Source: Minisyncoccota bacterium (lineage in GTDB: Bacteria > Patescibacteriota > Minisyncoccia > Phycocordibacterales > UBA9973). From it: DNA of 64,000 bases. The notes under the pieces are model-generated. The model had not been told where the DNA came from. It saw only the letters and a list, made by a program, of their open reading frames with translations, and made no database searches. Of the stretch, positions 8,447 through 56,438 are shown piece after piece. The stretch is taken from NCBI GenBank assembly GCA_031413715.1, contig JANOFO010000003.1:11047-75046 (forward strand). The letters are read 5' to 3'. The translations under genes and the position numbers were made by a program. The stretch's first letter is position 1, and each line of letters starts with the position of its first letter.

Positions 8447-9465
8447 ATTGAGAAATTTTTGATGCTATAGAGATCCGCATCTTCGTCTGCTTGTTTGATC
8501 TCTTCTTTACTCCTATCATCCATAAGCTTTATATCATCCTCTATCGTAGAGACTACGAGTTCAGAGCTATTGTTATCGATTGGTGCTTCCTGTTCTTGTT
8601 TAGCGATAAAATTCTCTAGCATCTCGTTTGGATCTCGTTCTTTATTTGATTTAAGCAGATCAAGAATCATGCGAAGATCATCATTGGAAAAGAAATCGAT
8701 CATAATCTGCCCGCCGTTTTCTTTGCGGTCGATATGGACACGAGTACCCAAATGCTCTTGGAGTTTGTCTTCAAGGTCAGCAAGCTCTGGATCAGGCATA
8801 TATTCTTTCTTGCGAATACGATCGACAGCAATCTTGCGAGCGATCTTCTCAGCATCGCGGACTGTCATTTTTTTGAGCATGATTTCCTTAAAAAGCACCA
8901 TCTGCTCTTCGGGTCTATCCGCAAGCATGAGAATCGGTCTTGTGTGACCCTCGGTAATTTTACCGCCAGAGAGACCATCGAGAATCTCCTGCGGGAGTGA
9001 AAGCAAGCGTAATGTATTGGAAACATGCTCGCGACTTTTGCCGACCTTAGTGCCGATCTGCCCATGAGTAAATTTAAATTCTTCGTTAAGTCGGAAAAAA
9101 GCACGAGCACGTTCGACAGAATTGAGGTCTTCACGTTGCAGGTTTTCTATAATTGCAAGCTCGAGCTTGGCCATATTGTCATCGCCAACGCGAATAATGA
9201 CCGGTACTTGATCAAGCCCTGCCAGACGAGAAGCGCGCAAGCGACGCTCTCCGGCGATGAGTTCATATTCTACCGCAATGCCTCCATCTTCTTTCAAAAC
9301 TTCCATGCGTGATACGGTCAGAGGCTGAAGGACACCGTACTGGCGAATAGAGTCAGCGAGCTCGCTTAAGCGGCCTTCGTCGAACTCGCGACGTGGCTGA
9401 AAAGGATTGGGTTTGATCTTATCGACATCTATCCAAAAGATTGAATTACTATAAAGCTGTGACAT
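8443..9465 (-). CDS. parB: ParB/Spo0J-family partition protein; no adjacent parA
   Basis: 340 aa. ParB box (IFWIDVDKIKPNPFQPRREFDEGRLSELADSIRQYGVLQPLTV...IAGERRLRASRLAGLDQVPVII). Its end overlaps the rel stop codon by 4 nt (convergent genes). Confidence 0.85.
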   Translation of the reverse strand: MSQLYSNSIFWIDVDKIKPNPFQPRREFDEGRLSELADSIRQYGVLQPLTVSRMEVLKEDGGIAVEYELIAGERRLRASRLAGLDQVPVIIRVGDDNMAKLELAIIENLQREDLNSVERARAFFRLNEEFKFTHGQIGTKVGKSREHVSNTLRLLSLPQEILDGLSGGKITEGHTRPILMLADRPEEQMVLFKEIMLKKMTVRDAEKIARKIAVDRIRKKEYMPDPELADLEDKLQEHLGTRVHIDRKENGGQIMIDFFSNDDLRMILDLLKSNKERDPNEMLENFIAKQEQEAPIDNNSSELVVSTIEDDIKLMDDRSKEEIKQADEDADLYSIKNFSI

Positions 9466-43314: not shown

Positions 43315-44055
43315 TTAGATAATACTTCCAACCTTAAGACCAAGCTTGTCGCTTGCTGATTCATTTTGGACTATGATCTCAAGGAAGCGCTTTTCTCCGA
43401 AACCAGAACTCCCTCGAGTCAATGCAGGCTTGCCGTCTTTTGGAACATCAGCTAGGCGCTCGTAAAATTCGAGATCCTTCATGAAATGACTTTCATTCTC
43501 GATAAGGGTTGTCTTGCAGTTGCCGAAGTTATCTACCCTCCATACGAAGTTTTTTTCTCCGAAATCTTCGACATCTACTTCTTTTGCAGGTACATCTTCT
43601 CCTTCGCTAAGCCATTTGGCAAGATACGGTAGGTACTCAAAGCTTCTAAATTGTGAATTGGAAATCCGCAAGGCTTCATCGTGATCGAGAAACTTACTGC
43701 ATACTTCAAACACATCTGTTTCATAAACCTTGGAGAATAGCCCGAGCTTCTTGGCAAGAGGAAAGCAATTCGGCGTTCCTAGTATCAGCAATTTCCCGAG
43801 TCTGCAAAAGCAAAATGGAATACCATTTAGGTACTTTTCCTTATTGCCACGCAAGGCAACATTGATGGAAATAATGCCAGGTGCATCCTTGTAGGCATCG
43901 ATTGTATCGATAAGATCACCCTGAGCCTTTAGGCTCGATTCTACTCCGCAAAAGTTGGTGGAAATATTTTCAAGAAGACCATGGTAACGTGCTACTTGGC
44001 GCGTGCGGGCATTGTCGTCGAGGCAGTCATTGATGATTGTGACAAGTTGTGACAT
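43315..44055 (-). CDS. Hypothetical protein, possibly a divergent DUF62 / SAM hydroxide adenosyltransferase (SalL/FlA-like)
   Basis: 246 aa. C-terminal VWRVDNFGNCKTTLIENE resembles the DUF62 C-terminal ID.FGN..TN motif. A mid-region TPNCFPLAKKL weakly resembles RDIFAPVAAHL. The N-terminal motif is poorly conserved. This is weak, memory-based similarity. Confidence 0.35.
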   Translation of the reverse strand: MSQLVTIINDCLDDNARTRQVARYHGLLENISTNFCGVESSLKAQGDLIDTIDAYKDAPGIISINVALRGNKEKYLNGIPFCFCRLGKLLILGTPNCFPLAKKLGLFSKVYETDVFEVCSKFLDHDEALRISNSQFRSFEYLPYLAKWLSEGEDVPAKEVDVEDFGEKNFVWRVDNFGNCKTTLIENESHFMKDLEFYERLADVPKDGKPALTRGSSGFGEKRFLEIIVQNESASDKLGLKVGSII

Positions 44056-44243
44056 AGCTTTTTAATTTTAAATTGTTAAAACAACCCGTCGGGGCTGTTT
44101 TTTGCATTTCATAGGTAGATTTGAGAATTTATGCAGTGCAACAAGCAACCCCGATATTTGGGGTTTTCATCATAACTGCCATCATTCCTTGTTTGCACGT
44201 ATTCATATATAGAATGATATCAAAATTATATTCACCCTGTCAA

Positions 44244-45938
44244 TTACATCTTTTCTGGAGTTTTGATACCTAGGAGGTAGAGGCCATTTTTCATAGTTTG
44301 ATGAAATGCCTCTACGAGAGCGATGCGGTATGGGGCATGCGGATCATTTTTATTTATAATCTGAGTATTCGCATAGAAAGAATTAAAAGCACTAGCGAGT
44401 TCGGTAAGATACGTCGCGATGTGATGAGGCTCAAGCGCTTCGTATGAACGCACCACAATTTCAGGGAATTGATAAAGAATATGTTCTAGATTCGTGACTT
44501 CATTTGGTACATCTTTATATCCTAGAGAAAGGTCTTCTTGTTCTGCTTTTTTAAGCAGTGCATTTGCGCGAACAGCAGTGTATTGCAGATATGGGCCAGA
44601 GTCCCCTTCAAATGAGATAGATTTCTCAAAGTCATATACGATGTCGCCAGTCAGTGAAGAGCGAAGAATGGAATATTTCACCGCAGAGACTCCAACTTCT
44701 TCACTGATAGATTTCTTTTCTTCATTGGAGAATTCGCGATCTTTAACCTTCTCACCGACCACATCCATAGAATCCCGAATCAATGATTCTCCTGTTATGA
44801 CATTGCCTTTTCGAGAAGACATCTTGCCAGAAGCAAACTTCATCATGCCATGAGTCACATGCTTCATACGCTTCTCATAATCTGGATGGATCAATGACAC
44901 AGCTTTCTGCACTACTTTCATATATTCGCCTTGCTCAATAGCCGTAACGATAATAGATAGATCAGGGTCTTCTTTGCCAAACTTGGTCATCATCAATCCT
45001 ATTTCTTTTGTCTCATAGAGAGGAATACCTAGCGATGTAATGAAAACTCTGGTGTGCAGTTTCGGATCATACTTTTCGGCATGGAACACTATTGCGCCAT
45101 CGGATTCTTCAAAAACCTTTCCAAGATTCTCTTGTACGATCTTCTGACCAATTGGAGCCATTTCAGACTCAAAGAAATAATAATTAAATTTTGTACCAAG
45201 AAGAGAATATATTTCTTCAAATGCATCGAGGGTGACTTGTCTGCCCCAATCATATATTGTATTTATATCCTCATCACTTCTATCATAGACTTTTTTATTT
45301 ATAACATCGATTTCTTTCTTTATATTTTCATCCTCATCTGCTTTTGTGCTTGCTTTGGCATACTGCTCGCCGATCCATAAAGCTCCCTTTCCTTCGTACG
45401 ATTCACCAGAGTTAATAATGCCATAGATAGCTTTAGCGACATGAGGTCCGACATCACCTTGATAGTTTGCGCGGATAGTATGAGCCCCAGAGTATTCCAT
45501 GATGCGAGCGATGGATTCCCCTATAGCATTTGTCATCAAGTGGCCGATATGAAACGGCTTGAAAGGATTGGGATCAGTGTATTCCACCATAATTTTCTTA
45601 CATTTTACACGCTCATTTTTACCCCAATCTTCTTTTTGCTTTAAAATATCTTTTACTGCATCAGCAAAAAATTCTCGAGAGAGATAGAAATTGATAAATC
45701 CTGGTCCAGCGATTTCGATCTTAGCGATTTCCTTCGGTAAATTACTTTCAAGTTCACTTTTGATCTTTTCAGCAAGCTCGCGCGGATTACTCCCTGCAAC
45801 TTTAGCGTAAGCAAGCGCAACATTCGTAGAATAATCTCCATTGATAATTTCAGCTGGATGTTCAAGAATTATATCTTCGGCATCAATTCCAAGATTTTTC
45901 AGCGCTATCTTAATTTGTTCTTTTAATTTTTCCTGCAT
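44244..45938 (-). CDS. argS: Arginyl-tRNA synthetase
   Basis: 564 aa. N-terminal Arg_tRNA_synt_N, class I HIGH variant (..PNPFKPFHIGHL..), C-terminal DALR anticodon-binding region. Confidence 0.9.
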   Translation of the reverse strand: MQEKLKEQIKIALKNLGIDAEDIILEHPAEIINGDYSTNVALAYAKVAGSNPRELAEKIKSELESNLPKEIAKIEIAGPGFINFYLSREFFADAVKDILKQKEDWGKNERVKCKKIMVEYTDPNPFKPFHIGHLMTNAIGESIARIMEYSGAHTIRANYQGDVGPHVAKAIYGIINSGESYEGKGALWIGEQYAKASTKADEDENIKKEIDVINKKVYDRSDEDINTIYDWGRQVTLDAFEEIYSLLGTKFNYYFFESEMAPIGQKIVQENLGKVFEESDGAIVFHAEKYDPKLHTRVFITSLGIPLYETKEIGLMMTKFGKEDPDLSIIVTAIEQGEYMKVVQKAVSLIHPDYEKRMKHVTHGMMKFASGKMSSRKGNVITGESLIRDSMDVVGEKVKDREFSNEEKKSISEEVGVSAVKYSILRSSLTGDIVYDFEKSISFEGDSGPYLQYTAVRANALLKKAEQEDLSLGYKDVPNEVTNLEHILYQFPEIVVRSYEALEPHHIATYLTELASAFNSFYANTQIINKNDPHAPYRIALVEAFHQTMKNGLYLLGIKTPEKM

Positions 45939-45955
45939 TTTCTACTTTCTACTAG

Positions 45956-46378
45956 CTACTTCTTCCCCGTACTTCCAAACATTCCTTCTCCACGAGCTGA
46001 GTCACTGAGCGTATCAGTCTCTTCAAGTTCGCATATAGCCACAGGCACGATAACAAGCTGGGATACTTTGTCTCCTTTTTCAAAAGCATAAGGCTTGTCA
46101 GAAAGATTTACTAAAAGGGTGTTATATTCACCTCGATATCCTGCATCAAAGACTCCTCCCATATGATGCAGCCCTGCCTTGGACATGCTACTCTTGTCCA
46201 TAATTATACCACCGTAGCCGTCGGGAAATTCGAGAGCAAACCCATGCCAGAATCTATAATGCTCCATTGGCTGGATAATCTTATCCTCCATCGCATACAT
46301 ATCCATGCCAATATCTCCCGGATGAGCGTATCTTGGCAACTTCGCATTCTCTTTTAATTTTTTAACTTTGATTTTCAT
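45956..46378 (-). CDS. dut: dUTP diphosphatase
   Basis: 140 aa. ..LPRYAHPGDIGMDMYA.., ..GIIMDKSSMSKAGL.., ..GVFDAGYRGE.., ..GDKVSQLVI.. are dUTPase motifs 1-5. Confidence 0.9.
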   Translation of the reverse strand: MKIKVKKLKENAKLPRYAHPGDIGMDMYAMEDKIIQPMEHYRFWHGFALEFPDGYGGIIMDKSSMSKAGLHHMGGVFDAGYRGEYNTLLVNLSDKPYAFEKGDKVSQLVIVPVAICELEETDTLSDSARGEGMFGSTGKK

Positions 46379-46380
46379 TT

Positions 46381-46953
46381 TTATATTTTAATTATCTCTT
46401 TGACTTTCTTTACAACTTGCTTTGGTGACAAGCGAGTATTATCTATCTCTATATTATACTTCACCGGGGCAGGAGTATTCCAATCTTTTTCTTTCTTCAT
46501 TATTTGCCTCATTATCTTAGGATCAGCAAGTTTGTTCAATTTCTTCCTTGATTTCCCTGATACACGCTTGATAAGAGCATTTCGATCAGCAGTCAGGTGA
46601 ACGAAATACGCTTTCCCACCGGCCTTCTCAATAAATGATTGAATTTTCTTCACAAACATAGGATCACTTAAACCTGTCAATGAAACATAATCTGCCGAAT
46701 ACGCATGAGTAGTTACAGTATTCAAATGGCCTTTTGAGATTTCTTCAAATATAGACAATCTCAATGTTTCAACTAAACGATTGAGGTTTAGGGTGTCTCT
46801 CTCAAAAAGTTCTCTGGCAATATCGTAAGTATGGTGATTATGGAAAAATTTATATCCAGTCTGTTTTTGGAATTCTTTAGCTACTGTATATTTACCTACA
46901 GCAAACGGGCCATAGAATGTGACAACATTGAATTTGGGTTTTTTAGTTTTCAT
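46381..46953 (-). CDS. P-loop NTPase / small-molecule kinase-like protein
   Basis: 190 aa. Walker A (TFYGPFAVGKYT). It has the size and layout of the AAA_33 / nucleoside-kinase fold. Substrate unknown. Confidence 0.5.
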   Translation of the reverse strand: MKTKKPKFNVVTFYGPFAVGKYTVAKEFQKQTGYKFFHNHHTYDIARELFERDTLNLNRLVETLRLSIFEEISKGHLNTVTTHAYSADYVSLTGLSDPMFVKKIQSFIEKAGGKAYFVHLTADRNALIKRVSGKSRKKLNKLADPKIMRQIMKKEKDWNTPAPVKYNIEIDNTRLSPKQVVKKVKEIIKI

Positions 46954-47483
46954 TTAAAATTTACTGAACATTTCTAATATAGGAGGGAAAAATAGAGAAG
47001 TGACAAATTTACTTTTTTCTTGCTCAGAAAGATTTTTAATACTTTCTATAGAATACTCTTCAAATCCAGCTCCATCTTCAGGTTCGATTTTTAAATCGAA
47101 AATTGTACCAGAAAAATTATAGCCAAAAAAATATCGAAGTGCATTATTTATAGTTTTTGTTTCAGGATCTTCATTTCGAAAAAGAACCCTACCAAGATAT
47201 TTAAGATTATCAATACTTTCCTCAATACCAGTTTCTTCTCTTAATTCGTTAATCGCTGCTTGTTCAATAGTTTGATCAAGTTCAACATGGCCACTTACGG
47301 AAAAGGTTAGTTTGCCAGGATGCGTTTCTTTAGTAATTGAACGTTTCTGGAAAACAAATTTATCATTAGGTAACTTTATAAGAACAAATACCTCTGGGTG
47401 CAGTAGCCCTTTTTGGTGAACAACGGATCTTTCTTCAGAACCTATTACATCTCCACGCTCATTAATAAGAGGTATTTTCATAA
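46954..47483 (-). CDS. NUDIX hydrolase (the ORF track extends it upstream to 47613 with a hydrophobic N-terminus)
   Basis: Nudix box (SGHVELDQTIEQAAINELREETGIEE). Start taken at MKIPLINERGD. Confidence 0.7.
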
Positions 47484-47554
47484 CTACCCCAGTATAACAA
47501 AATAAACCAATCCCATGAAGAGATTGGTTTATCAATGTTTTGTTATAAATTATT

Positions 47555-47974
47555 TTACTCGTCACGAAAGTCGAGCCAAAAAGGACAATAATTACCAACT
47601 GGTTGTCCGTCAATATTTATGGGCATAGTGCCGCTGCCAATATTGAAGATTTTTTTCGCAGGATTGCCATCATTCTCATTACAAGCAAGATGACAATCTC
47701 CTTTACCAGTAGCATACACTGAGCCCATTTCTCCCCGGTAGAAACAATTTCTACATGTTCTTTGTACAACCCCATCTGTTGGAGTATATAATACTTCCGT
47801 AGGTGTTAATTCTTTTTTTGGATCATCTTTCGTTTCTGCAGCGATGAATGGCTGCCCGTTAAGGAGACGCAAGCCTCCTTTTTTAACAGTAAGACCTTTT
47901 TTCATAACAATAAGTTTATTTTTTGATTTTGAATATTCAGTTACATTATAGCACGCGAAATCCCATGTTGTCAA
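47555..47974 (-). CDS. Hypothetical Cys-rich small protein (probable start MKKGLTVKKGG.. at about 47905)
   Basis: ~116-139 aa. CRNCFYRGEMGSVYATGKGDCHLACNENDG...YCPFW, with 5-6 Cys suggesting a metal site. No family recognised. Embedded in the nucleotide operon. Confidence 0.4.
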   Translation of the reverse strand: MTTWDFACYNVTEYSKSKNKLIVMKKGLTVKKGGLRLLNGQPFIAAETKDDPKKELTPTEVLYTPTDGVVQRTCRNCFYRGEMGSVYATGKGDCHLACNENDGNPAKKIFNIGSGTMPINIDGQPVGNYCPFWLDFRDE

Positions 47975-47980
47975 TATTTA

Positions 47981-48673
47981 CTATTTAAGTAATTTTCGAA
48001 CTTTTCCATAAACCTCCTCATGTATATCTTCGCGAGTGCGGAGAATATTCTTTTGGGCACATTCTATCTGCTTGAATTCGGGCTGCGTCTTGGCGAGCCA
48101 AAGAGCGCTCTTGCGAGAATTTGTAAGGTATTCAACATTTCCTTCTACTATATCTTTCTTCTTGCCTAGATATGTGCGTTTAGATTTCTTGTTGCGTTCT
48201 TTAATAAGATTCAAGATAACAGACATCGGAAGGTTAAGATAAAAAACCACATCGGGTCGAGGAATTTTGAAAACTTTATATTCCATCTCATCTAGCCACT
48301 TTATAAATGCTGCACGCTTAGCCGCATTCTTGATCTTGCCTCCTTGGTGGATCTGATTGGCGCTCACATAGCGATTCGCAAGGACTATGTAGCCCCGCTT
48401 GAGCCAGCCTTCGATCTCTGCTTTTGATTCAAACCGGTCACCTGCATAGAGTACCGAGGCGATCTTTGGATGAACTTTGACGAAATTATAATATTGTTCA
48501 GAAAGGCAGTGACCGATAAATTTACCGAAAAAGTTCTTGTAGTATTCTGGAAAGTCTACATTCTTAACTATATACCCTTCTTTCTTTAATCTTTTAGTCA
48601 ACAAATCCACCTGGGTTGCTTTTCCGCTACCATCCGTACCGTCTATTACTATGAGTTTACCTTTTCTTTTCAT
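47981..48673 (-). CDS. tmk: Thymidylate (dTMP) kinase
   Basis: 230 aa. P-loop (IVIDGTDGSGKATQ). DRY/LID region (LYAGDRFESKAEIEGWLKRGYIVLANRYVSANQIHQGG) aligns well with the Tmk DR(H/Y)...S..AYQG block. Confidence 0.75.
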   Translation of the reverse strand: MKRKGKLIVIDGTDGSGKATQVDLLTKRLKKEGYIVKNVDFPEYYKNFFGKFIGHCLSEQYYNFVKVHPKIASVLYAGDRFESKAEIEGWLKRGYIVLANRYVSANQIHQGGKIKNAAKRAAFIKWLDEMEYKVFKIPRPDVVFYLNLPMSVILNLIKERNKKSKRTYLGKKKDIVEGNVEYLTNSRKSALWLAKTQPEFKQIECAQKNILRTREDIHEEVYGKVRKLLK

Positions 48674-48677
48674 TGTT

Positions 48678-49109
48678 CTACTTTATCGCATCGTAGTAAT
48701 TCTTGCCAGTTTTGTATGATTCAATAGCAAGACCTGTCTGTATAAATACAGGATCAGGTAACTTACCAAGATCATACCATCCCCAATCTTCAAGTTTTTC
48801 AGGTTCGAGTACCTGCGGTTCTCCGCTTTCCCAATCAGCAAGTAAGACTATATTTACATAATGCTTTGGAGCATAGTGAAAAATATTTCCTACATGCAAG
48901 AATCGAATATTTTTAATCTGAATTCCTGTTTCCTCTAATGTTTCACGTCGAGCACAATCTTCAAATGACTCCATGTACTCTAGATGTCCACCTGGAAATG
49001 CATATTCACCTATGCCATGGGAACTTTTCCGCTTACCCATCAAGACCTTGCCATCTTTCAAGATCATGATCCCCATACCAACTCTTGGTCTTTGATTTTC
49101 TGTATCCAT
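48678..49109 (-). CDS. NUDIX hydrolase
   Basis: 143 aa. Nudix box (GGHLEYMESFEDCARRETLEETGI). Confidence 0.8.
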   Translation of the reverse strand: MDTENQRPRVGMGIMILKDGKVLMGKRKSSHGIGEYAFPGGHLEYMESFEDCARRETLEETGIQIKNIRFLHVGNIFHYAPKHYVNIVLLADWESGEPQVLEPEKLEDWGWYDLGKLPDPVFIQTGLAIESYKTGKNYYDAIK

Positions 49110-49110
49110 A

Positions 49111-49518
49111 TTATTTTAAAAACTTATTTAGAATTATTTTTACATCATTCAAATCTTTATACTCTTCTACTTGGAATGCACTGTTGCCACTCACCATAGC
49201 AGAAAGTGATTTATCTGGGACATGTCTGTAGAGACAGAGTACTTTTTTATGTAGATTCTCGGCAATCCCGAGCTCATAGCCTACGCCAAGCGATGGAGTC
49301 GTAACTTCGGCCACTATCATGTCGGAATTTTTGAGCCATTTCATATCTCTATTGTATATAAACTCTGCAGCCTTTTGTTCCCCTTTTTCAGATATGCTAG
49401 CATCACCAATATGCTCAGTCAGAATTTCTCCGTAACTTTTCAATATCTCTATAATCTGAACATACAACTCTCTATCATCTCGCCCTCCCCGTATTGAACC
49501 TGCAAAGTATATTTTCAT
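49111..49518 (-). CDS. 2'-deoxynucleoside 5'-phosphate N-hydrolase (DNPH1/Rcl family)
   Basis: 135 aa. KIYFAGSIRGGRDDRELY...ILTEHI...VAEVTTPSLGVGYELG...SLSAMV...FQVEEY aligns closely along its length with my memory of the animal DNPH1/Rcl sequence, including the catalytic E in VGYELG. Confidence 0.75.
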   Translation of the reverse strand: MKIYFAGSIRGGRDDRELYVQIIEILKSYGEILTEHIGDASISEKGEQKAAEFIYNRDMKWLKNSDMIVAEVTTPSLGVGYELGIAENLHKKVLCLYRHVPDKSLSAMVSGNSAFQVEEYKDLNDVKIILNKFLK

Positions 49519-49523
49519 AATTA

Positions 49524-50087
49524 CTATTCTAAATTAAATTTGTTTAAAAATAAATCGATCTCCTTATGGAAAGCTTCCAAGTCAGAATTATTCAGAATAG
49601 AATAATCTGCAAGTTTCAGACATTCAAAAACTCGCGGTAAATTTGGCAGAGAATTCTCAGTTTTTTCATTTTGAATAAATTCTTCTAATGTTGTTGCTTC
49701 TCCTAATTTATTGCGATTTACGCTTCTTTCAAATCGAACTTTTGTATCAGCTTCAATTACAAGCAATGCAAGGTTTGAATTCGCACGCATATATTCTATT
49801 GTGCCCAAAATTCGCATGCCAGTTATTATCCCTCTATCACCAGTGATTCTATTTAGAGCAAGTCTGGCAAAATGATCAGGACCCTTTTCCTTAACAAGAC
49901 TATTGCCTATCTTGATGAGATTTTCTCTCGTTGGTTCGATATTGTCTTCCTTTGCTAGATCTCTCAATATCTCGCTTATTGGGGAAGAAGGTATTTTTAA
50001 TTTTTTCGAAATATATTCTGCTGCCGTATCTTTACCAGAACTAATAGTACCAATAATACCAATTATAGTTTTTCTTCCTTGGTTCAT
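49524..50087 (-). CDS. dNMP kinase-like P-loop kinase (phage T4 gp1-like SGKDT motif)
   Basis: 187 aa. IIGIIGTISSGKDTAAEYI matches the T4 gp1 motif GVKRSGKDTTADFI. The overall size is also similar to gp1. Confidence 0.5.
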   Translation of the reverse strand: MNQGRKTIIGIIGTISSGKDTAAEYISKKLKIPSSPISEILRDLAKEDNIEPTRENLIKIGNSLVKEKGPDHFARLALNRITGDRGIITGMRILGTIEYMRANSNLALLVIEADTKVRFERSVNRNKLGEATTLEEFIQNEKTENSLPNLPRVFECLKLADYSILNNSDLEAFHKEIDLFLNKFNLE

Positions 50088-50088
50088 A

Positions 50089-50550
50089 TCATTTCGTTCC
50101 TAACTCTTTTAAAGCTTCGGTTGCGAGGTGCAAAACATTAGGACGAAGGTTCATATTGTTAAGCTCCTCCTTGCTGACCCAACGTGTTTCAGTAAGCTCG
50201 TGCTCGCTTTCCGAATTTAAAACCTTATCGGAATCCGTTGTAGCAAAATATACAAGAACAATATGTTCGTGTGTTTCATTTACCAAATGTTTTCCTAAGT
50301 ATCGAGGAGACGGCAGATAAGAATAATCGTCGTCATCAAAAATAGGAACTTCGCTTTGTATCTTAATATCTAATCCGACCTCTTCTTTCACTTCACGATA
50401 CGCTGCCTCGATGGGATCCTCATCAAGTTCTATATGCCCGCCAACAGAAAGCCAAATTTTATACTTGTCATGCATCCGAAGAAGCACCTTGTCCTTGTAA
50501 ACAATGAATACTTCTACTGTATAGTCGACTTTTTCGTGAAGGTGGGGCAT
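50089..50550 (-). CDS. NUDIX hydrolase
   Basis: 153 aa. Nudix box (GGHIELDEDPIEAAYREVKEEVGL). Confidence 0.8.
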   Translation of the reverse strand: MPHLHEKVDYTVEVFIVYKDKVLLRMHDKYKIWLSVGGHIELDEDPIEAAYREVKEEVGLDIKIQSEVPIFDDDDYSYLPSPRYLGKHLVNETHEHIVLVYFATTDSDKVLNSESEHELTETRWVSKEELNNMNLRPNVLHLATEALKELGTK

Positions 50551-50551
50551 G

Positions 50552-50980
50552 TTAATTAATCATACCAATAATCTCGCTAATATACTTATCTAAATTCTCT
50601 AGTGTTTTTAATTCTTCAGCCAAGAACCACTCATATTTATCATGCTCATCGCTAAGCTTTACTTTCCCTTTAGCCTGTCCTACATATGTAAGCCGGACGA
50701 CATGCTTATCTTCCTTTAATATATCTTGAGCAGAGAGGAGCTTTGGTTCCCCAACAAGTTCAAGCCCTGTTTCTTCAAGAACTTCTCTTTTAAGATTCTC
50801 TAAAAGAGAGACTCCTATATCTATTCGTCCTCCTGGAATATCCCAGATATCACGATCTTTTATTTCCGGATATTTCTCTTTAGAACGCTGAAGCAGGAGA
50901 TAGTTCCCTTCTTCATTTCTCAATAAAATTTTTACGCCAACTTGGAGATTCATATAAATAGAATATAACAAAAACAACAT
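50552..50980 (-). CDS. NUDIX hydrolase, first gene of the long minus-strand nucleotide operon
   Basis: 142 aa. Nudix box (GGRIDIGVSLLENLKREVLEETGLE). Confidence 0.75.
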   Translation of the reverse strand: MLFLLYSIYMNLQVGVKILLRNEEGNYLLLQRSKEKYPEIKDRDIWDIPGGRIDIGVSLLENLKREVLEETGLELVGEPKLLSAQDILKEDKHVVRLTYVGQAKGKVKLSDEHDKYEWFLAEELKTLENLDKYISEIIGMIN

Positions 50981-51003
50981 CAGAAATCCACCAGATCCAA
51001 AAG

Positions 51004-51037
51004 TGACACAAATTAGGCCATGGCGTAATTTGTGTCA
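51004..51037. promoter_or_regulatory. 34-bp palindrome 1 (TGACACAAATTAGGCCA|TGGCGTAATTTGTGTCA), a probable operator in the divergent promoter region
   Basis: 16 of 17 positions are self-complementary. Centred on CCATGG. It lies between the minus-strand NUDIX operon start (50980) and the plus-strand wHTH gene start (51066). Its right arm overlaps a candidate -35 for the plus-strand gene. Confidence 0.6.
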
Positions 51038-51065
51038 GTGTTGCTACAATGATAGAATAAGTTAT

Positions 51066-51545
51066 ATGTCTATAGTTGGGGAAATTTTGAAAGAATTGTG
51101 GGAAACTGAACATACCTATAAAGGTACTAAGGTAAACATCTTCGGTATCCCTCGTTTTAAAAAGTACTCCAAACGAACTTTGCGCTCTACTATCGACAGG
51201 CTTGCCAAAAAAGAAATAATTCAAAAAGAGATAGCTGGCATCGTCCTTTCAAAAAATGGTAGGCGTTATGTCAAAAGGAAGATGGACTCGCTTCACTCAT
51301 TTGAAAAACCTGACTATGCTTCTCTGTCAAAGAATCTCGTCGTTATGTTTGATATTCCTACGGAAAGAAAAGCGGAGCGAGAATGGCTGCGTTTCCATTT
51401 AAAAAAGTTTGGTTACATTATGATACAAAAAAGTGTGTGGGTTGGGCCTTCTCCTCTACCGAAAGAATTTAAAGATTATATTAAGAGCATTAAACTTCAT
51501 AATTGCATAAAAACATTTAAGCTGGCTAAACCATACAAAACATAA
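51066..51545 (+). CDS. Small winged-helix + Cas2-like (VapD/Cas2 fold) protein, a putative regulator
   Basis: 160 aa from the ATG at 51066. The ORF track's upstream GTG start only translates the palindrome. N-terminal K/R-rich wHTH-like region (..RSTIDRLAKKEIIQKEIAGIVLSKNGRRYV..). C-terminal LVVMFDIPTERKAEREWLRFHLKKFGYIMIQKSVWVGP resembles the Cas2 core (..VYDI...R...L...G.R.Q.SVF..). Confidence 0.45.
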   Translation: MSIVGEILKELWETEHTYKGTKVNIFGIPRFKKYSKRTLRSTIDRLAKKEIIQKEIAGIVLSKNGRRYVKRKMDSLHSFEKPDYASLSKNLVVMFDIPTERKAEREWLRFHLKKFGYIMIQKSVWVGPSPLPKEFKDYIKSIKLHNCIKTFKLAKPYKT

Positions 51546-51565
51546 TTATATAAGTAAAATCATGG

Positions 51566-51599
51566 TGACACATTTTCTGCCATGGCAGAAAATGTGTCA
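51566..51599. promoter_or_regulatory. 34-bp perfect palindrome 2 (TGACACATTTTCTGCCA|TGGCAGAAAATGTGTCA)
   Basis: Perfect 17+17 inverted repeat, 20 nt after the stop of the wHTH/Cas2-like gene. It shares the outer TGACACA/TGTGTCA and central CCATGG with palindrome 1. No flanking T-run, so it is not a typical intrinsic terminator. Confidence 0.6.
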
Positions 51600-51643
51600 A
51601 ACGTAAAAGTTATAATATATAGTAGATGCTTAATCTAAAATAT

Positions 51644-52222
51644 TTATAGATATTCTATTAATTGCTCATAGACTTCTGGTCTGTTCACTCGCAATGTTTC
51701 CCCTGTTTTGGTTGGAAGCTTAGCCATAGAAAGACCATATTGGTTGGCAAATGCAATAATTTTGTCCTCGGCAGCTTTGATCTCTGATTCATCGTTAACC
51801 AAAAGTTCTATTTCGCACGCTTTGAGTCCTGTTTCTATCTCGTCAATATCAATTAAAAATCCTTCTTTCTTATACTTCGTACGGTGAGTAGTAAAGCTTA
51901 CAAGTTCTTCTAAATTTTTCTTTACTTCAGTTTCTAAATAACTATCTGTATCAAATCCTAGTTTCTCGAGAATTTCTTTCTCATTTGTAATTTCTATAGC
52001 ATGCTTAGCTTTTTCGTTAGTGTCAGTTCCTATCTGAATCTTGAGTTCATAACTGCCATCTCGTTTACGCAATTTTATTTTCGCTTCACTTTTAAAATAA
52101 TCAAATGTGGGAGTATCGTAATAAATATCTCGAATTGATTTGTCTTCAACAAATTCTGCTCCTTCAAGCAAAGCTTTGAGCTGTTCATATGTTGGTTGAA
52201 ATTTCTTTTCTATCTCAATCAT
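51644..52222 (-). CDS. CYTH-domain protein (triphosphate tunnel metalloenzyme), co-operonic with glyA
   Basis: 192 aa. N-terminal MIEIEKKF (ExExK) and alternating acidic beta strands (..ELKIQIGTDTNEK.., ..EIELLVNDESE..). Its start overlaps the glyA stop (ATGA). Confidence 0.55.
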   Translation of the reverse strand: MIEIEKKFQPTYEQLKALLEGAEFVEDKSIRDIYYDTPTFDYFKSEAKIKLRKRDGSYELKIQIGTDTNEKAKHAIEITNEKEILEKLGFDTDSYLETEVKKNLEELVSFTTHRTKYKKEGFLIDIDEIETGLKACEIELLVNDESEIKAAEDKIIAFANQYGLSMAKLPTKTGETLRVNRPEVYEQLIEYL

Positions 52223-53496
52223 ACAAAACTCTTTGGTATCGGGTGCTTATGGGCTAGGGCTTTTACTTTCTCTTTTATTTCGGCTTTTTTGTCTGCATTA
52301 TCTTTGTTCTTGAGGGTCTCAATAAGGAGCTTGGCAACTTCGGCACAATCTTCTTCTTTGAATCCACGAGTAGTGATGGCTGGCGTGCCGAAACGAATAC
52401 CGGATGGATCAAGTGGCTTACGGGTATCATTTGCGATCGAGTTCATATTAAGGGTAATACCAACTTCATCAAGTACCGTCTGAGCTTCCTTTCCTGTAAC
52501 CCCAAGGGAGCCAAATACATCAGCAAGGATGAGGTGGTTATCTGTTCCCCCGCCGATCATGCGGACACCTTCATCTTTCAGAACTTTCTCCATTGCTTTG
52601 GCATTTTTTAATATCTGAGCTGCATATACTTTAAATTCTGGTCGGAGAGCTTCACCGAAGGCGATAGCTTTCGCAGCAATCGTGTGCATATGCGGGCCGC
52701 CTTGAATGCCTGGAAAGATAGATTTATCTATCTTTTTTGCGATCTCTTCATTCTCTCTAGTGAGGATCATACCACCACGCGGACCGCGAAGAGTTTTATG
52801 AGTAGTGGTTGTGATGATATCAAATCCGAAATCAAATGGATTTGGCAAAACTTTTGCAGCTATGAGTCCTGCGATGTGCGCCATATCAGCCATTGTGATC
52901 GCACCGACTTCTTTTGCAATGTCAACAAACTTCTGATAATTAAGATTGCGGGAATAAGCAGAGAATCCGGCAAGAATTATTTTAGGTTTCTTCTCGATTG
53001 CTACCTGGCGAAGGGCTTCATAGTCGATCTCGCCTGTCTCCGGATCTTTCATCTTGTAAGTCACGAAATTATAGATCTTTGCAGGAAGGGTCATCGGGTG
53101 GCCGTGTGTAAGATGCCCGCCATGAGAGAGATCCATGCCGAGCACGGTATCGCCGGGTTCAAGAAGAGCAGAGTAAACAGCAAGGTTGGCAGGGGCGCCG
53201 GAGTGTGGCTGAACATTCGCGAATTTGCAATCAAAAAGCTTGCACGCCCTTTCAATTGCCAATCGCTCGACTTGATCGGTAAATTCCTGCCCTCCGTAAT
53301 AACGACGTCCAGGATAGCCTTCAGAGTATTTGTTGGTAAGAACTGAGCCGTTGGCTTCCCGAACCGCCATAGAGACATAATTCTCGGAAGGTATTAGCTC
53401 AAGACCATCTTCTTCCCGTAATGTTTCCCCTTCTATCGCTTGTAGTATTTCCTTGTCTTGTTCTTCTATATACATCCCGATAGTGAAAAATGGCAT
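52219..53496 (-). CDS. glyA: Serine hydroxymethyltransferase
   Basis: 425 aa. ..LELIPSENYVSMAVREANGSVLTNKYSEGYPGRRYYGG.., PLP-Lys region (TTTTHKTLRGPRGG). Confidence 0.9.
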   Translation of the reverse strand: MPFFTIGMYIEEQDKEILQAIEGETLREEDGLELIPSENYVSMAVREANGSVLTNKYSEGYPGRRYYGGQEFTDQVERLAIERACKLFDCKFANVQPHSGAPANLAVYSALLEPGDTVLGMDLSHGGHLTHGHPMTLPAKIYNFVTYKMKDPETGEIDYEALRQVAIEKKPKIILAGFSAYSRNLNYQKFVDIAKEVGAITMADMAHIAGLIAAKVLPNPFDFGFDIITTTTHKTLRGPRGGMILTRENEEIAKKIDKSIFPGIQGGPHMHTIAAKAIAFGEALRPEFKVYAAQILKNAKAMEKVLKDEGVRMIGGGTDNHLILADVFGSLGVTGKEAQTVLDEVGITLNMNSIANDTRKPLDPSGIRFGTPAITTRGFKEEDCAEVAKLLIETLKNKDNADKKAEIKEKVKALAHKHPIPKSFV

Positions 53497-53630
53497 TATG
53501 TGTTGGCCGTTTTCAATTTTAATTAAGTAATAGTATAAAGCTAGGTTTTAAAACTAACTCCAGTGGTATCCCCGCACATGATAGGCTATGCCATTTTCTA
53601 CTACGGGATACATACACCGATTTTAGCATG

Positions 53631-53658
53631 TTGAACAAGAAATCAAAAACTGTATAAT
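53631..53658 (+). promoter_or_regulatory. Sigma70-like promoter of the thyX-like/dcd operon
   Basis: TTGAAC-16 nt-TATAAT, ending 6 nt before the ATG at 53665 (a very short leader). Confidence 0.5.
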
Positions 53659-53664
53659 GAGACT

Positions 53665-55020
53665 ATGCAATCTGGTAATATTGAAGAGCTCAAACACACA
53701 AAAGTGTCAATCAATGGCGGAGGAGTGGTCATCATCCTAGATACTGGATCAGTGATAGGACCTGAATCTTCGGCGATGCTACAAGCTCTTCACTCAAGAT
53801 CAACAAGTGGGCTTGAAGGTCATCTTGAAATTCTAGCTAAAAGAGGTTCTGAGAATTTCATGAAGAATTTCTATGTCGGATACGGACACAAATCTATCGG
53901 TGACTGTGGTACTGCATCTATTTTTATCGAAGGAGTATCTCTGCTTGTTGCAAAAGCTATACAAGACTGGCCTCTATATTCCGGACAAGAATCTTCTACA
54001 AGATATGTGGATTTCAGAGTACAACCTTTCAAAAATCCCATGGGTTTTGATGAGGGAAATAAAATACTAGAAACTTGGAGACAATTTTACATAGATTCAT
54101 TTGATAAGACGGTGGAATATTTAAAAACTCAATTCCCGATCGGCGAAGGAGAATCAGAATCTATTTATATAAAAGCAATAAATGCTCGGGCTTTTGATAC
54201 CTTACGTGGATTCCTACCAGCAGGTGCAGTTACAAACCTCGCTTGGTCTACCAACCTACGCCAAGCGGCGGATAAATTACTTGTTCTGCGACATCATCCA
54301 CTTTTGGAAGTCCGAGAAACAGCCGAAGCAATAGAGAAAGCTTTGATTGGAGCATACCCAAATTCGTTCGGCCACAAGAGATACGAAGCCACAGAAGAAT
54401 ACAATAAATATTGTATGGAGAATGATTACTATTATCACAATCCTAAATGTCCAGATTTCGAGATGACTTCAAATTCTATTGATGTAAAACTTCTACCGAG
54501 AGAAACACTCGAAAAACGTCCAGCAAAAACAGAACTGCCAAAACATTTGGGCGAATCTGGCACTATCCAATTTGAATTCCTACTTGATTTCGGATCATTC
54601 CGAGATATACAGAGACATCGTGCCATAATCCAGCGAATGCCATTACTGACAACAGAGCTCGGATTTGAAGAATGGTATATATATGAACTTCCAGAATCTA
54701 TACGAGAAAAAGCAAAAGCACTTTTAAAATCACAGGAGGAGAAAATTGCGTCACTCTCTATTTCGAAAGAAGAGAAGCAATATTATATAGCAATGGGTTA
54801 CAAAATTTCTAATCGCATAACCGGTAATCTACCTTCACTAGTATATTTGGCAGAGCTCCGCGCAACACGATTCGTCCACCCTACTCTTCGCAAGAGAGCG
54901 AAACAACTTGCAGACAAATTATCGGAGATATTTGGGAAGGATGGCTTGATAATTCACTTAGACGAAGAACCCGACCGATTTGACATAAAGCGTGGTGAGC
55001 ACGATATTGTGCTAAAATAA
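53665..55020 (+). CDS. Long, divergent ThyX-like (flavin-dependent thymidylate synthase family) protein
   Basis: 451 aa. GHKSIGDCGTASIFIEGVSLLVAKAIQDWPLYSGQESSTRY aligns to the ThyX core (GHxSPFEHxxFTFxIEG.S....Q..RHR-X7-S..RY), but DWP replaces the RHR. A separate RHR occurs later (FRDIQRHRAIIQRM) and an LR..R..H block follows (AELRATRFVHPTLRK). The protein is about twice the length of a canonical ThyX. Based on a memory-based alignment only. Confidence 0.5.
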   Translation: MQSGNIEELKHTKVSINGGGVVIILDTGSVIGPESSAMLQALHSRSTSGLEGHLEILAKRGSENFMKNFYVGYGHKSIGDCGTASIFIEGVSLLVAKAIQDWPLYSGQESSTRYVDFRVQPFKNPMGFDEGNKILETWRQFYIDSFDKTVEYLKTQFPIGEGESESIYIKAINARAFDTLRGFLPAGAVTNLAWSTNLRQAADKLLVLRHHPLLEVRETAEAIEKALIGAYPNSFGHKRYEATEEYNKYCMENDYYYHNPKCPDFEMTSNSIDVKLLPRETLEKRPAKTELPKHLGESGTIQFEFLLDFGSFRDIQRHRAIIQRMPLLTTELGFEEWYIYELPESIREKAKALLKSQEEKIASLSISKEEKQYYIAMGYKISNRITGNLPSLVYLAELRATRFVHPTLRKRAKQLADKLSEIFGKDGLIIHLDEEPDRFDIKRGEHDIVLK

Positions 55021-55024
55021 TACT

Positions 55025-55561
55025 ATGATTCTCTCTGATACGAAGATACTTGAGCATGTAGAAAAGGGCGATATAGTTATAACGCCATTTGATGTCGCCA
55101 ACATGGGTGGCAATTCGTATGATGTGCATTTGAGTAAATATTTTGCTCAATATATTGATAGTGAAATTGACGCAAAAAAGCATAATCAAATAAAACATTT
55201 TGAAATACGAGAAGAAGGATTCGTACTCATGCCCGGTGAGCTATACCTTGCCTCTACCCTAGAATACACAGAGTCGCATATCCACGTGCCATTCCTAGAA
55301 GGAAAATCTTCTACTGGCAGACTTGGCGTAGATATACATGCGACAGCAGGCAAAGGCGATGTCGGGTTCTGCGGATATTGGACTCTTGAAATCTCAACAT
55401 CAAAACCGGTGCGCATTTATCCTGGTATGCCGATTGGACAGCTCATTTACTATGTCGTAGAAGGTCCAGTCGAGCGTCTCTATCATAAAAAAGCGACAGC
55501 CAAGTATTCTCATCAAGAGAACTTACCAAAGGAGTCAATGATGTGGAAAAATTTTAAATAA
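55025..55561 (+). CDS. dcd: dCTP deaminase
   Basis: 178 aa. MILSDTKILEHVEKGDIVITPFD...GNSYDVHL...GELYLASTLEYT...GKSSTGRLGV is typical Dcd. Confidence 0.85.
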   Translation: MILSDTKILEHVEKGDIVITPFDVANMGGNSYDVHLSKYFAQYIDSEIDAKKHNQIKHFEIREEGFVLMPGELYLASTLEYTESHIHVPFLEGKSSTGRLGVDIHATAGKGDVGFCGYWTLEISTSKPVRIYPGMPIGQLIYYVVEGPVERLYHKKATAKYSHQENLPKESMMWKNFK

Positions 55562-55562
55562 G

Positions 55563-55598
55563 AAATGGCTGGTTCCTTAATAAAGGAACCAGCCATTT
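55563..55598. terminator. Bidirectional hairpin between dcd and pnp
   Basis: aaatggctggttcc-ttaataa-aggaaccagccattt (14-bp stem). Confidence 0.55.
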
Positions 55599-55616
55599 GA
55601 ATAAAATGAAAAATTC

Positions 55617-56438
55617 TTAAAGAGCTTTAATCACTGACGACAGGTAACTACCAAGCTGTCCCGAGAATTGCTTGGCCTTTTTTATATTATCTTCATGCGA
55701 ATGAATTCCAACAGCGTCGTTTGTAATAAACGCAAGTGAGAGAACTCTCGTTTTGTAGAGGGCTGCAACAGCAACTTCTGGTATTGTACTCATGCCTACT
55801 GCTTTGGCACCTGTATATGATAAGGCTAATTTGTCATATTTGCGACCTTCGAAGTTAGGGCCGAGCACCATAACATAGCCACCGGTGACAATCTTTCCGT
55901 TATACGCTTTCCGATTTTGGAGAGCGAGTTTCATTAGATCCTTGGACAATACATCGTCCGGTGAAGCGAATTCACTCACCCATAGAGGAAGTGGTACGTA
56001 CAGACTGACAAAGCCATCAATAACAACTAGGCACCCAGGCTCCAGTTTACTCTTTGGTAGTGCTCCTGCTGCACAGGTTGTAATCAACGTCTTAACACCT
56101 AATTTCATTAAAATTTCAGTTTGCAACCTAACCATCAAATAAATTGCTAGGCTACAAGGCTCTTCGTTCAGATGGATCCGTCCCTGTAGAACAATCACTT
56201 CTTTTCCTGCAACAGTACCATGGACAAACCTTCTGTTGTGGCCCTCTAACTTTCCCAATCTTGAAAAGCCAGGAACCTTTTCAAAGTTGATATACTGTGG
56301 ATTTTCAATCTTCAACTTATCCCCCCAACCTGTTCCCAAAATGATGCCAAGCCGAATGGGTTTTTTAATTTTAAATTTTTTACGTAAAAAATCAGCAGCT
56401 TTTGTCGCGGCAATTTCGCGGTTTCTATTTCTTTTCAT
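55617..56438 (-). CDS. Purine nucleoside phosphorylase / MTA phosphorylase (PNP-UDP family, trimeric type)
   Basis: 273 aa. ..LGIILGTGWG.., ..HNRRFVHGTVAGKEVIVLQGRIHL.., ..TTCAAGAL.., ..MSTIPEVAVA.. Confidence 0.8.
   Translation of the reverse strand: MKRNRNREIAATKAADFLRKKFKIKKPIRLGIILGTGWGDKLKIENPQYINFEKVPGFSRLGKLEGHNRRFVHGTVAGKEVIVLQGRIHLNEEPCSLAIYLMVRLQTEILMKLGVKTLITTCAAGALPKSKLEPGCLVVIDGFVSLYVPLPLWVSEFASPDDVLSKDLMKLALQNRKAYNGKIVTGGYVMVLGPNFEGRKYDKLALSYTGAKAVGMSTIPEVAVAALYKTRVLSLAFITNDAVGIHSHEDNIKKAKQFSGQLGSYLSSVIKAL

Follow-up and report, generated by a model that had tools for sequence, protein, structure and literature searches.

Here, we describe a small gene in a 64,000-nucleotide stretch of DNA from a Minisyncoccota bacterium (assembly GCA_031413715.1, contig JANOFO010000003.1, positions 11,047 to 75,046 of the forward strand; hereafter, the window). 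The gene encodes a PaaX-like protein and is bracketed by two matching palindromes, which we call O1 and O2. Gene and palindromes together are a self-contained unit that is conserved across Patescibacteria. Its parts lie in the window as follows:

51004 to 51037: upstream 34-bp palindrome, the proposed operator O1, TGACACAAATTAGGCCATGGCGTAATTTGTGTCA, with one G-G mismatch
51030 to 51035, plus strand: −35-like hexamer TTGTGT inside the right arm of O1, read from the sequence
51053 to 51058, plus strand: −10 box TAGAAT, beginning 13 nt before the ATG, read from the sequence
51066 to 51545, plus strand: gene for the short PaaX-like protein (winged helix-turn-helix, wHTH, plus Cas2-like), ATG at 51066 to stop at 51545, 159 amino acids
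51066 to 51248, plus strand: wHTH domain (residues 1 to 61), from the AlphaFold secondary structure and Foldseek matches to the CggR, DtxR/IdeR, and MepR DNA-binding domains
51171 to 51209, plus strand: predicted recognition helix (residues 36 to 48), from the AlphaFold helix and the co-variation peak
51327 to 51524, plus strand: Cas2-like (PaaX_M) domain (residues 88 to 153), from Pfam, NCBIfam, PADLOC, and the predicted fold
51566 to 51599: downstream 34-bp palindrome O2, TGACACATTTTCTGCCATGGCAGAAAATGTGTCA, beginning 20 nt past the stop, with perfect 17-bp arms

We place the start of the gene at the ATG at 51066 because, in an alignment, an N terminus of the form MS(I/M)V is common to all orthologues. 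A longer open reading frame (ORF) from the GTG at 51003 runs through the upstream palindrome and is an artifact.

The protein represents a short version within the PaaX repressor family, in which a wHTH domain precedes the central Cas2-like domain and the ligand-binding C-terminal domain is absent. The strongest match is to the Pfam model PaaX_M (PF20803, “PaaX central Cas2-like domain”; 52.2 bits against a cut-off of 24, 6.7e-14, residues 92 to 153). Two models of Cas2 itself, Pfam PF09827 (24.7 bits against 23.8; 2.6e-5) and NCBIfam TIGR01573 (29.5 bits against 24.5), match the C-terminal domain only, and the PADLOC Cas2 models likewise match the C-terminal half (best, Cas2_II, 1.2e-8). The PaaX equivalog model TIGR02277 is aligned over positions 32 to 148 of 279 and scores 27 bits against a cut-off of 264.55. 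Neither PaaX_C (Pfam) nor any VapD family (Pfam and NCBIfam) is matched at E values up to 10; the protein ends at residue 159, six residues past the Cas2-like domain.

The predicted structure has the same architecture. In the AlphaFold model (72 homologues; pLDDT 81), a winged helix (helices at 3 to 17, 29 to 33, and 36 to 48; wing at 52 to 61) is followed by a linker helix and then by a β-α-β-β-α-β domain at residues 90 to 152. The top full-length Foldseek matches in the PDB are the PaaX-family structure 3kfw (2.4e-4), E. coli PaaX (8a39; 1.2e-3), and then 3l09; after these PaaX structures come Cas2 chains and wHTH DNA-binding domains. Sequence matches of the wHTH half to BlaI and CggR_N are weak, and Lys or Arg accounts for 19 of the first 80 residues (counted by eye). 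These results bear out the first-pass annotation, made from the sequence alone, where it described a winged-helix-like N-terminal half rich in Lys and Arg and a Cas2-like C-terminal half. Of the families that it named for comparison, Cas2 is matched, with PF09827 above its cut-off, and VapD and PaaX_C are not. Pfam, NCBIfam, and Foldseek together reveal only wHTH and PaaX_M/Cas2 domains, with no HUH/Y1 transposase domain.

Asp96 (51351 to 51353) aligns with the Asp of the MFDMP motif, at the end of β-1, in the Cas2 proteins of S. pyogenes and E. faecalis. This residue is invariant in 112 diverse representatives of the family, in which P98, R105, W107, R109, Q121, S123, W125, and G127 are near-invariant alongside it.

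The family is large. It comprises at least 1749 clusters of proteins of ~158 amino acids with ~70% identity, and all of their named sources are Patescibacteria (Paceibacteria, Nomurabacteria). A scan of 1.8 billion cluster representatives returned 1452 relatives, nearly all of 150 to 190 amino acids; the short two-domain form is thus a family of its own. The ~158-amino acid homologues are labeled in databases as either “PaaX” or “CRISPR-associated endonuclease Cas2.” The latter label is misleading, as the protein is not a CRISPR Cas2. No CRISPR array occurs in the window, where Tandem Repeats Finder (TRF) gives only two 12-bp repeats, and no CRISPR repeat family is found there by Rfam, whose matches are three tRNAs only. 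Among the flanking genes from 43.3 to 59.6 kb, Pfam detected no cas family, cas1 included, and the scanned neighbors in related loci comprise housekeeping or uncharacterized genes with no cas genes among them. A CRISPR link was therefore rejected, in agreement with the first-pass annotation, which had placed the gene outside any CRISPR locus.

O1 and O2 stand alone in the window. They are the only matches in 64 kb to TGACACA-N10-30-TGTGTCA (0.01 expected; 0 of 100 shuffles), and a general palindrome scan of the window shows them to be the only ones of their kind, confirming that the gene is flanked by two matching palindromes. The arrangement recurs in nearly all of ~60 related loci; among them, one palindrome stands on each side of the gene in nearly all of 20 genome loci, each from a species-representative genome, and ~30 metagenome loci. 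Measured back from the ATG, the upstream palindrome has its center at 45 to 48 nt in nearly all genome loci and its edge at 27 to 31 nt in 36 of 38 loci. The downstream palindrome begins 7 to 100 nt after the stop in nearly all orthologous loci.

We find that the palindromes follow the consensus xxxxACA-N3-TCTGC-N4-GCAGA-N3-TGTxxxx. The core is kept; the four outermost nucleotides of the half-site differ from genome to genome and remain symmetric. Symmetry also runs on past the 34-bp core, by 3 to 6 bp (mean, 3 to 4 bp, against 0.4 expected), in flanks whose sequences differ site by site, even inside coding regions. The arms fall into two subtypes: ACAAAC...GTTTGT, which has the TTG of a −35-like hexamer, and ACATTTT...AAAATGT, which does not. 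Where the arm types differ within a locus, the downstream copy is mostly of the ACATTTT type, as here, where O2 lacks this TTG; the reverse holds in L066 and L074 (L-numbers are labels of related loci, and coordinates given with them count within each locus). On the minus strand, O2 scores as terminator-like for the transcript of the CYTH gene that converges on it.

The upstream palindrome is coupled to a promoter. Among 37 orthologous loci, the −10 box begins 12 to 16 nt ahead of the ATG, with a perfect TATAAT in 30, and a TTGxxx hexamer stands in the right arm exactly 17 nt from the −10 box in 24. We defined the combined geometry as a TTG in the arm, 16 to 18 nt, and at least a 5/6 match to TATAAT. 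It is present on the gene-facing side in 25 of 30 cases, compared with 4 of 61, 9 of 120, and 2 of 64 on the other sides. Promoter-embedded sites are thus not a general rule; the geometry is specific to the regulator's own side. The position of the −10 box implies an mRNA that would be leaderless or nearly so. Since the upstream palindrome contains the −35 hexamer of the gene's own promoter, the arrangement suggests that the gene represses itself.

Protein and palindrome appear to vary in step. Using 38 distinct protein/site pairs, we calculated the mutual information between the outer 4 nt and each of 82 variable alignment columns. The five highest values belong to residues 37, 41, 40, 44, and 35 (z scores from 9.0 to 4.9; next best, 3.7), all of them within the predicted recognition helix or at its start. 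The probability that the top five would by chance all fall among the nine variable columns of residues 35 to 44, out of 82, is ~5e-6, and it is difficult to see another reason for such a concentration on a single helix. Within one locus, the two sites of a pair agree in their outer 4 nt in 42 of 50 cases, compared with 8% between loci. The co-variation is strong indirect evidence that the protein binds the palindromes directly. That the palindromes are the protein's binding sites, as had been predicted, is likewise favored by their near-universal flanking of the gene, their fixed distance from the ATG, and the co-variation of residues 35, 37, 40, 41, and 44.

The palindrome is also dispersed at low copy in related genomes, which makes the protein more than a local regulator of the nucleotide genes. 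A metagenome scan with the exact core ACAAACTCTGC-N4-GCAGAGTTTGT retrieved 106 stretches, ~70 of which have no copy of the gene in the retrieved DNA. Copy number is low: this genome has two sites in ~74 kb, with none further in the extra ~10 kb; no sites occur in 21 kb of another genome; and each of several contigs of 70 to 360 kb holds at most one exact-core stretch. Intergenic sites often lie at 3′ ends, such as those between PGK and HIT genes or DHFR and kinase genes, after atpC, after the RNase P RNA, and between uvrA and uvrC. The exact core has no matches in viral contigs, a PHROGs search with the protein gave nothing, and PADLOC gave Cas2-domain matches only; a phage or mobile-element origin was rejected on these grounds.

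Thirty-two sites lie inside long ORFs, all of them in a single frame of the palindrome, which reads x-T-N-S-A-x-A-E-F-V-x. They are found in genes for MiaA (18 sites), ArgRS (4), reverse transcriptase (4), PGK (2), pseudouridine synthase (2), a DNA-alkylation-repair enzyme (1), and a surface protein (1). MiaA, PGK, and other carrier genes are absent from the window. The insert in ArgRS occupies a variable loop, is absent from the ArgRS of the window and from most orthologues, and occurs in carriers that are not one another's nearest relatives. The MiaA insert has a single linker position throughout, where ~36 nt are present or absent in frame. About 45 of the 120 closest MiaA proteins carry it, as either TNSAxAEFV or TFSAxAENV, the latter matching the O2-type arm, and in approximately one-third of the 120 the linker is 12 residues shorter. 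We saw no target-site duplications around intragenic copies.

The same MiaA linker can hold other sequences. In L127 (10519 to 10543; the same genome as L005), it contains an unrelated GC-rich palindrome, TTCCCCTAGGC-CGT-GCCTAGGGGAA, which encodes SPRPCLGE, and many MiaA orthologues have similar linkers of the “SARQGLAE” type. This linker seems to collect palindromes of several kinds.

In the window, the unit lies within genes of nucleotide metabolism:

50552 to 50980, minus strand: NUDIX gene (Pfam NUDIX, 7.3e-19), the first of a minus-strand nucleotide operon and divergent from the regulator gene
51644 to 52222, minus strand: CYTH gene (Pfam CYTH, 9.2e-18), the last of glyA-CYTH and convergent with the regulator gene
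43315 to 56438, both strands: cluster genes for dUTPase, Tmk/dNK, nucleoside 2-deoxyribosyltransferase, four NUDIX proteins, two P-loop kinases, CYTH, GlyA, Dcd, PNP, and a ThyX-like protein

These genes form a dense deoxynucleotide/thymidylate cluster; the ThyX-like protein has 451 amino acids, and its match to the Thy1 model is limited to residues 55 to 232. The NUDIX/kinase operon and CYTH-glyA (51644 to 53496) had been described as divergently transcribed, but both are on the minus strand. The regulator gene is therefore inserted antisense into a co-directional array. On reading the window sequence, we recognized no promoter at a defined spacing from O1 facing the NUDIX gene.

The first-pass annotation saw in the gene a dedicated regulator of this nucleotide module and proposed co-occurrence with the operon as a check. 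In 10 of 21 genomes, we find the gene and palindromes within an ArgRS-dUTPase-Tmk...NUDIX-GlyA array; the remaining 11 have them in unrelated contexts, which include purine genes, rpoB, grpE/dnaK, trmD, uvrA/uvrB, recJ/rnhA, and polA, and palindromes also occur far from the gene. The association thus holds for about half of the genomes, and a dedicated role for the nucleotide cluster is not supported, whereas a local co-regulatory effect on it is possible. No paa (phenylacetate catabolism) genes are among the neighbors, which belong to nucleotide metabolism here and to varied housekeeping functions elsewhere. Precise excision of the unit as a cassette was rejected: NUDIX-site-Tmk and NUDIX-site-gene-site-198aa-Tmk loci differ by an extra gene, and there is no clean pair of empty and filled sites.

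Several other observations concern these contexts. DNA-repair genes recur near sites: the 50-nt gap between uvrA and uvrC holds a palindrome in L080 (5224 to 5257) and L096 (5485 to 5518), uvrA and uvrB stand on either side of the regulator gene itself in one genome that is more distant (L018, 2943 to 9051), and further cases involve recJ/rnhA (L017), polA (L020), and a DNA-alkylation-repair gene (L093). A protein of 555 to 587 amino acids with no Pfam match is encoded in L001 (4161 to 5900), L085 (644 to 2350), and seven other loci. A palindrome lies 9 to 36 nt past its stop in at least eight loci, and two copies bracket it in L001 and L062. A recurrent neighbor of 568 amino acids likewise has no Pfam match.

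A paralogue of the regulator is encoded in L014 (6558 to 7143) and L007 (6566 to 7175), tail-to-tail with the main copy and between grpE and dnaK-dnaJ. The two copies are 39 to 43% identical by BLASTP and 28 to 30% identical in a multiple alignment. The paralogue has its own 30-bp palindrome, ACAAGTATTTTGCGGTCGCTAAATACTTGT, which begins 6 nt past a TTGACA-16-TATAAT promoter facing dnaK. It looks like a heat-shock operon repressor, and its palindrome after the promoter supports a family of operator-binding repressors.

Elsewhere in the window, a GC-rich palindrome with 16-bp arms, GAAGCGCAAGCGTCGCCTGCGACGCTTGCGCTTC, lies at 467 to 500 in a genome of 40% GC. Read on the minus strand, it would give KRKRRRRRLRF as the beginning of a membrane protein–like ORF that runs off the window, and a 12-bp tandem repeat directly adjoins it. 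Genes for ParB, RelA/SpoT, topoisomerase I, DprA, and SerRS are found near the window start (8443 to 9465) and in L129. Cumulative GC skew flattens at ~52 to 58 kb of the window and is uninformative as a clue to origin or terminus.

We consider it probable that the gene encodes a dimeric, sequence-specific PaaX-family protein that recognizes the palindromes on either side of its gene and, at O1, represses the gene's own promoter. From here we infer binding, dimerization, autorepression, and a role for O2 as follows. A protein dimer would bind the 34-bp palindrome, with each recognition helix reading an outer xxxxACA half-site and the conserved center, TCTGC-N4-GCAGA, lying under the Cas2-like dimer; in PaaX, the Cas2-fold domain is the dimerization module. 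Because O1 contains the −35 hexamer, binding there would repress transcription of the gene itself. O2 would be a second binding site, serving either as a looping partner or as a barrier or terminator against the converging CYTH-glyA transcript. As the same palindrome is present at a few other places per genome, the unit would be a protein-palindrome system of its own, which is not part of CRISPR and is not dedicated to regulating the nucleotide cluster.

Several points weigh against this interpretation. A plain repressor leaves unexplained the site-specific symmetry 3 to 6 bp past the core, the in-frame copies in MiaA, ArgRS, PGK, and other genes, and the concerted change in specificity of all sites in a genome. 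The protein has no ligand-sensing domain to relieve repression. The TTGTGT hexamer is weak, matching TTGACA at 3 of 6 positions, and a generic promoter scan did not list it. Finally, the co-variation statistic ignores shared ancestry.

Other explanations account for parts of these data. It is unlikely that the protein is chiefly a local regulator, whose binding to O1 and O2 controls the NUDIX-kinase-Tmk-dUTPase operon together with read-through from glyA-CYTH. The unit occurs in unrelated contexts in 11 of 21 genomes, and sites lie in or beside miaA, argS, pgk, atpC, RNase P RNA, reverse transcriptase, and surface protein genes, although in 10 of 21 the gene is antisense inside the ArgRS-dUTPase-Tmk...NUDIX-GlyA array and no other gene has its 5′ end toward a palindrome nearly as often as Tmk/dNK (18 of 63). 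The order NUDIX-site-Tmk is even found where the retrieved DNA has no regulator gene (L024, L114, and L125), and other sites adjoin DHFR, purD/purN, and uvrA-uvrC, with one inside a DNA-alkylation-repair gene. In three loci (L023, L067, and L109), the divergent gene has a TTGGAA-17-TATAAT promoter that begins 2 nt beyond the palindrome. However, promoter-coupled geometry is generally lacking on the non-regulator sides (4 of 61), and the window has neither an O1-spaced promoter facing NUDIX nor a site belonging to Tmk. Also doubtful is a REPtron-like arrangement, in which the palindromes are a mobile or actively homogenized repeat family with a dedicated protein partner: the wHTH domain would find the palindrome, and the Cas2-like domain, through its conserved Asp, would nick or process it and spread or copy it, including in frame into genes. 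Two palindromes bracket the gene as REPs bracket RAYT genes (PMC3733652), the variable bases are common to the sites within a locus, and palindromy runs into site-specific flanks. The insertions point the same way, namely, the ~36-nt present-or-absent insertions in MiaA (~45 of 120 carry one; approximately one-third have the short linker), those in ArgRS genes that are not closest relatives, and copies in seven unrelated gene families that are all in one of the three open frames; however, the MiaA site is at one orthologous position in many genomes, which fits old, maintained sites equally well. The near-invariance of D96, R105, R109, S123, and W125 in 112 diverse members might reflect catalysis of this kind, but these residues may be mere structural features of the PaaX_M domain, and the protein has no known transposase or recombinase fold. 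Low copy number (two sites in ~74 kb here, none in 21 kb of another genome), the lack of visible target-site duplications, and the lack of core matches in viral contigs are further points against mobility.

Chromosome-level and RNA-level roles are much less probable. ParB-, Noc-, and RTP-like proteins commonly have intragenic sites as well as sites beside their own genes. The low copy number, the conserved positions inside housekeeping genes, and the sites adjoining the gene would suit a parS/ParB-, Noc-, or RTP/Ter-like protein whose few sites mark segregation, organization, or fork arrest and whose gene-adjacent sites autoregulate. Yet close relatives differ in specificity, as is uncommon in systems of this type, and the genome already encodes ParB; we regard this explanation as very unlikely, and the GC skew of the window offers it no help in locating origin or terminus. 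There is a similarly slim chance that the palindromes act as hairpins in transcripts, as terminators or processing sites, that are bound or cut through the RNA recognition motif (RRM)–like Cas2 fold. RNases occur among both Cas2 and VapD proteins. A large number of sites are at 3′ ends (between 11 convergent gene pairs and downstream of atpC and of RNase P RNA), O2 is terminator-like on the minus strand, and symmetry runs past the core. Against this, T-tracts after the stem are equally frequent on the side facing a gene's 3′ end and on the other (32% for each), and O1 is upstream of the conserved −10 box and so is outside the gene's own mRNA, not in a terminator position; plain intrinsic terminators can thus be rejected. 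An RNA hairpin on one strand is also rejected, as arm mismatches show no strand bias toward G-U pairing (13 of G/T type versus 17 of C/A type), and the co-variation maps to a DNA-reading helix. The RNase-type regulator raised by the first-pass annotation has nothing in its favor beyond the conserved Asp. A dimeric repressor that acts at its own promoter remains our preferred explanation.

The genomes of Patescibacteria are tiny, and studies of their regulation are almost entirely lacking. Here, we define one of their most conserved small DNA-binding proteins, its proposed 34-bp site, and a residue-to-base co-variation that can be tested. We also correct a widespread database label and show that the PaaX scaffold exists in a minimal two-domain form. 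The palindrome is present in frame in essential genes and changes together with the protein, so one may ask how the sites, as a set, co-evolve with their protein. The combination of wHTH and Cas2-like domains is already captured by Pfam, and this architecture is itself known. In literature searches (PaaX with Cas2, PaaX with Patescibacteria, and palindromic operators in Patescibacteria), we found no description of the short Patescibacterial form, its palindrome, the co-variation, or the intragenic copies.

Among known systems, Cas2 (PF09827, TIGR01573) shares with the C-terminal domain its ferredoxin-like β-α-β-β-α-β fold, the model matches, and the Asp at the end of β-1. In contrast to Cas2, which is a stand-alone protein of ~90 to 110 amino acids, the domain here is fused to an 87-residue wHTH-plus-linker region, is scored far better by Pfam as PaaX_M, and is accompanied by no cas1, other cas gene, or repeat array in the window scans. 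Rickettsia palindromic elements are ~100 to 150 bp long and lie in frame in housekeeping genes, where they are tolerated as extra peptide segments. The copies described here are likewise palindromic DNA in frame in housekeeping genes, but they are ~34 to 40 bp long (11 to 13 codons), are tied to the gene for a DNA-binding protein, and are found in Patescibacteria rather than Rickettsia.

The closest parallel in architecture is PaaX (8a39 from E. coli W; PaaX-like 3l09 and 3kfw/Rv0674; PaaX_N/PaaX_M/PaaX_C; TIGR02277; COG3327), in which an N-terminal wHTH domain also precedes a Cas2-like central domain. PaaX has a wHTH, a dimerization motif, and the operator TGATTC-N27-GAATCA, and represses itself by hindering RNA polymerase at Px (PMC9493321). 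The putative operator here, TGACAC-N22-GTGTCA, similarly consists of two inverted hexamers with a long spacer at the gene's own promoter, where it overlaps the −35, and own-promoter repression is what its geometry leads us to propose. Unlike PaaX, the protein here is half the size, has no C-terminal helical phenylacetyl-CoA-binding domain, falls far below the equivalog cut-off (27 versus 264.55 bits), has no paa genes nearby, and is restricted to Patescibacteria among named sources. Its site also differs, with a spacer of 22 nt that contains the conserved center TCTGC-N4-GCAGA, and two sites flank the gene while further copies lie inside coding regions.

The parallel in genomic organization is the REP/RAYT system, in which one gene stands between two copies of a short palindrome that is also found elsewhere, mostly between genes and sometimes inside them, and in which repeat and protein differ together between lineages (PMC3733652). 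Here, the protein is a wHTH plus Cas2-like protein and not an HUH/Y1 (IS200/IS605-type) transposase, copies are few per genome rather than tens to hundreds and have no GTAG or CGTC tag, and the upstream copy doubles as part of a promoter. If the REPtron-like explanation were nonetheless true, then this unit would be a non-HUH counterpart of REP/RAYT and possibly a new class of repeat-associated protein.

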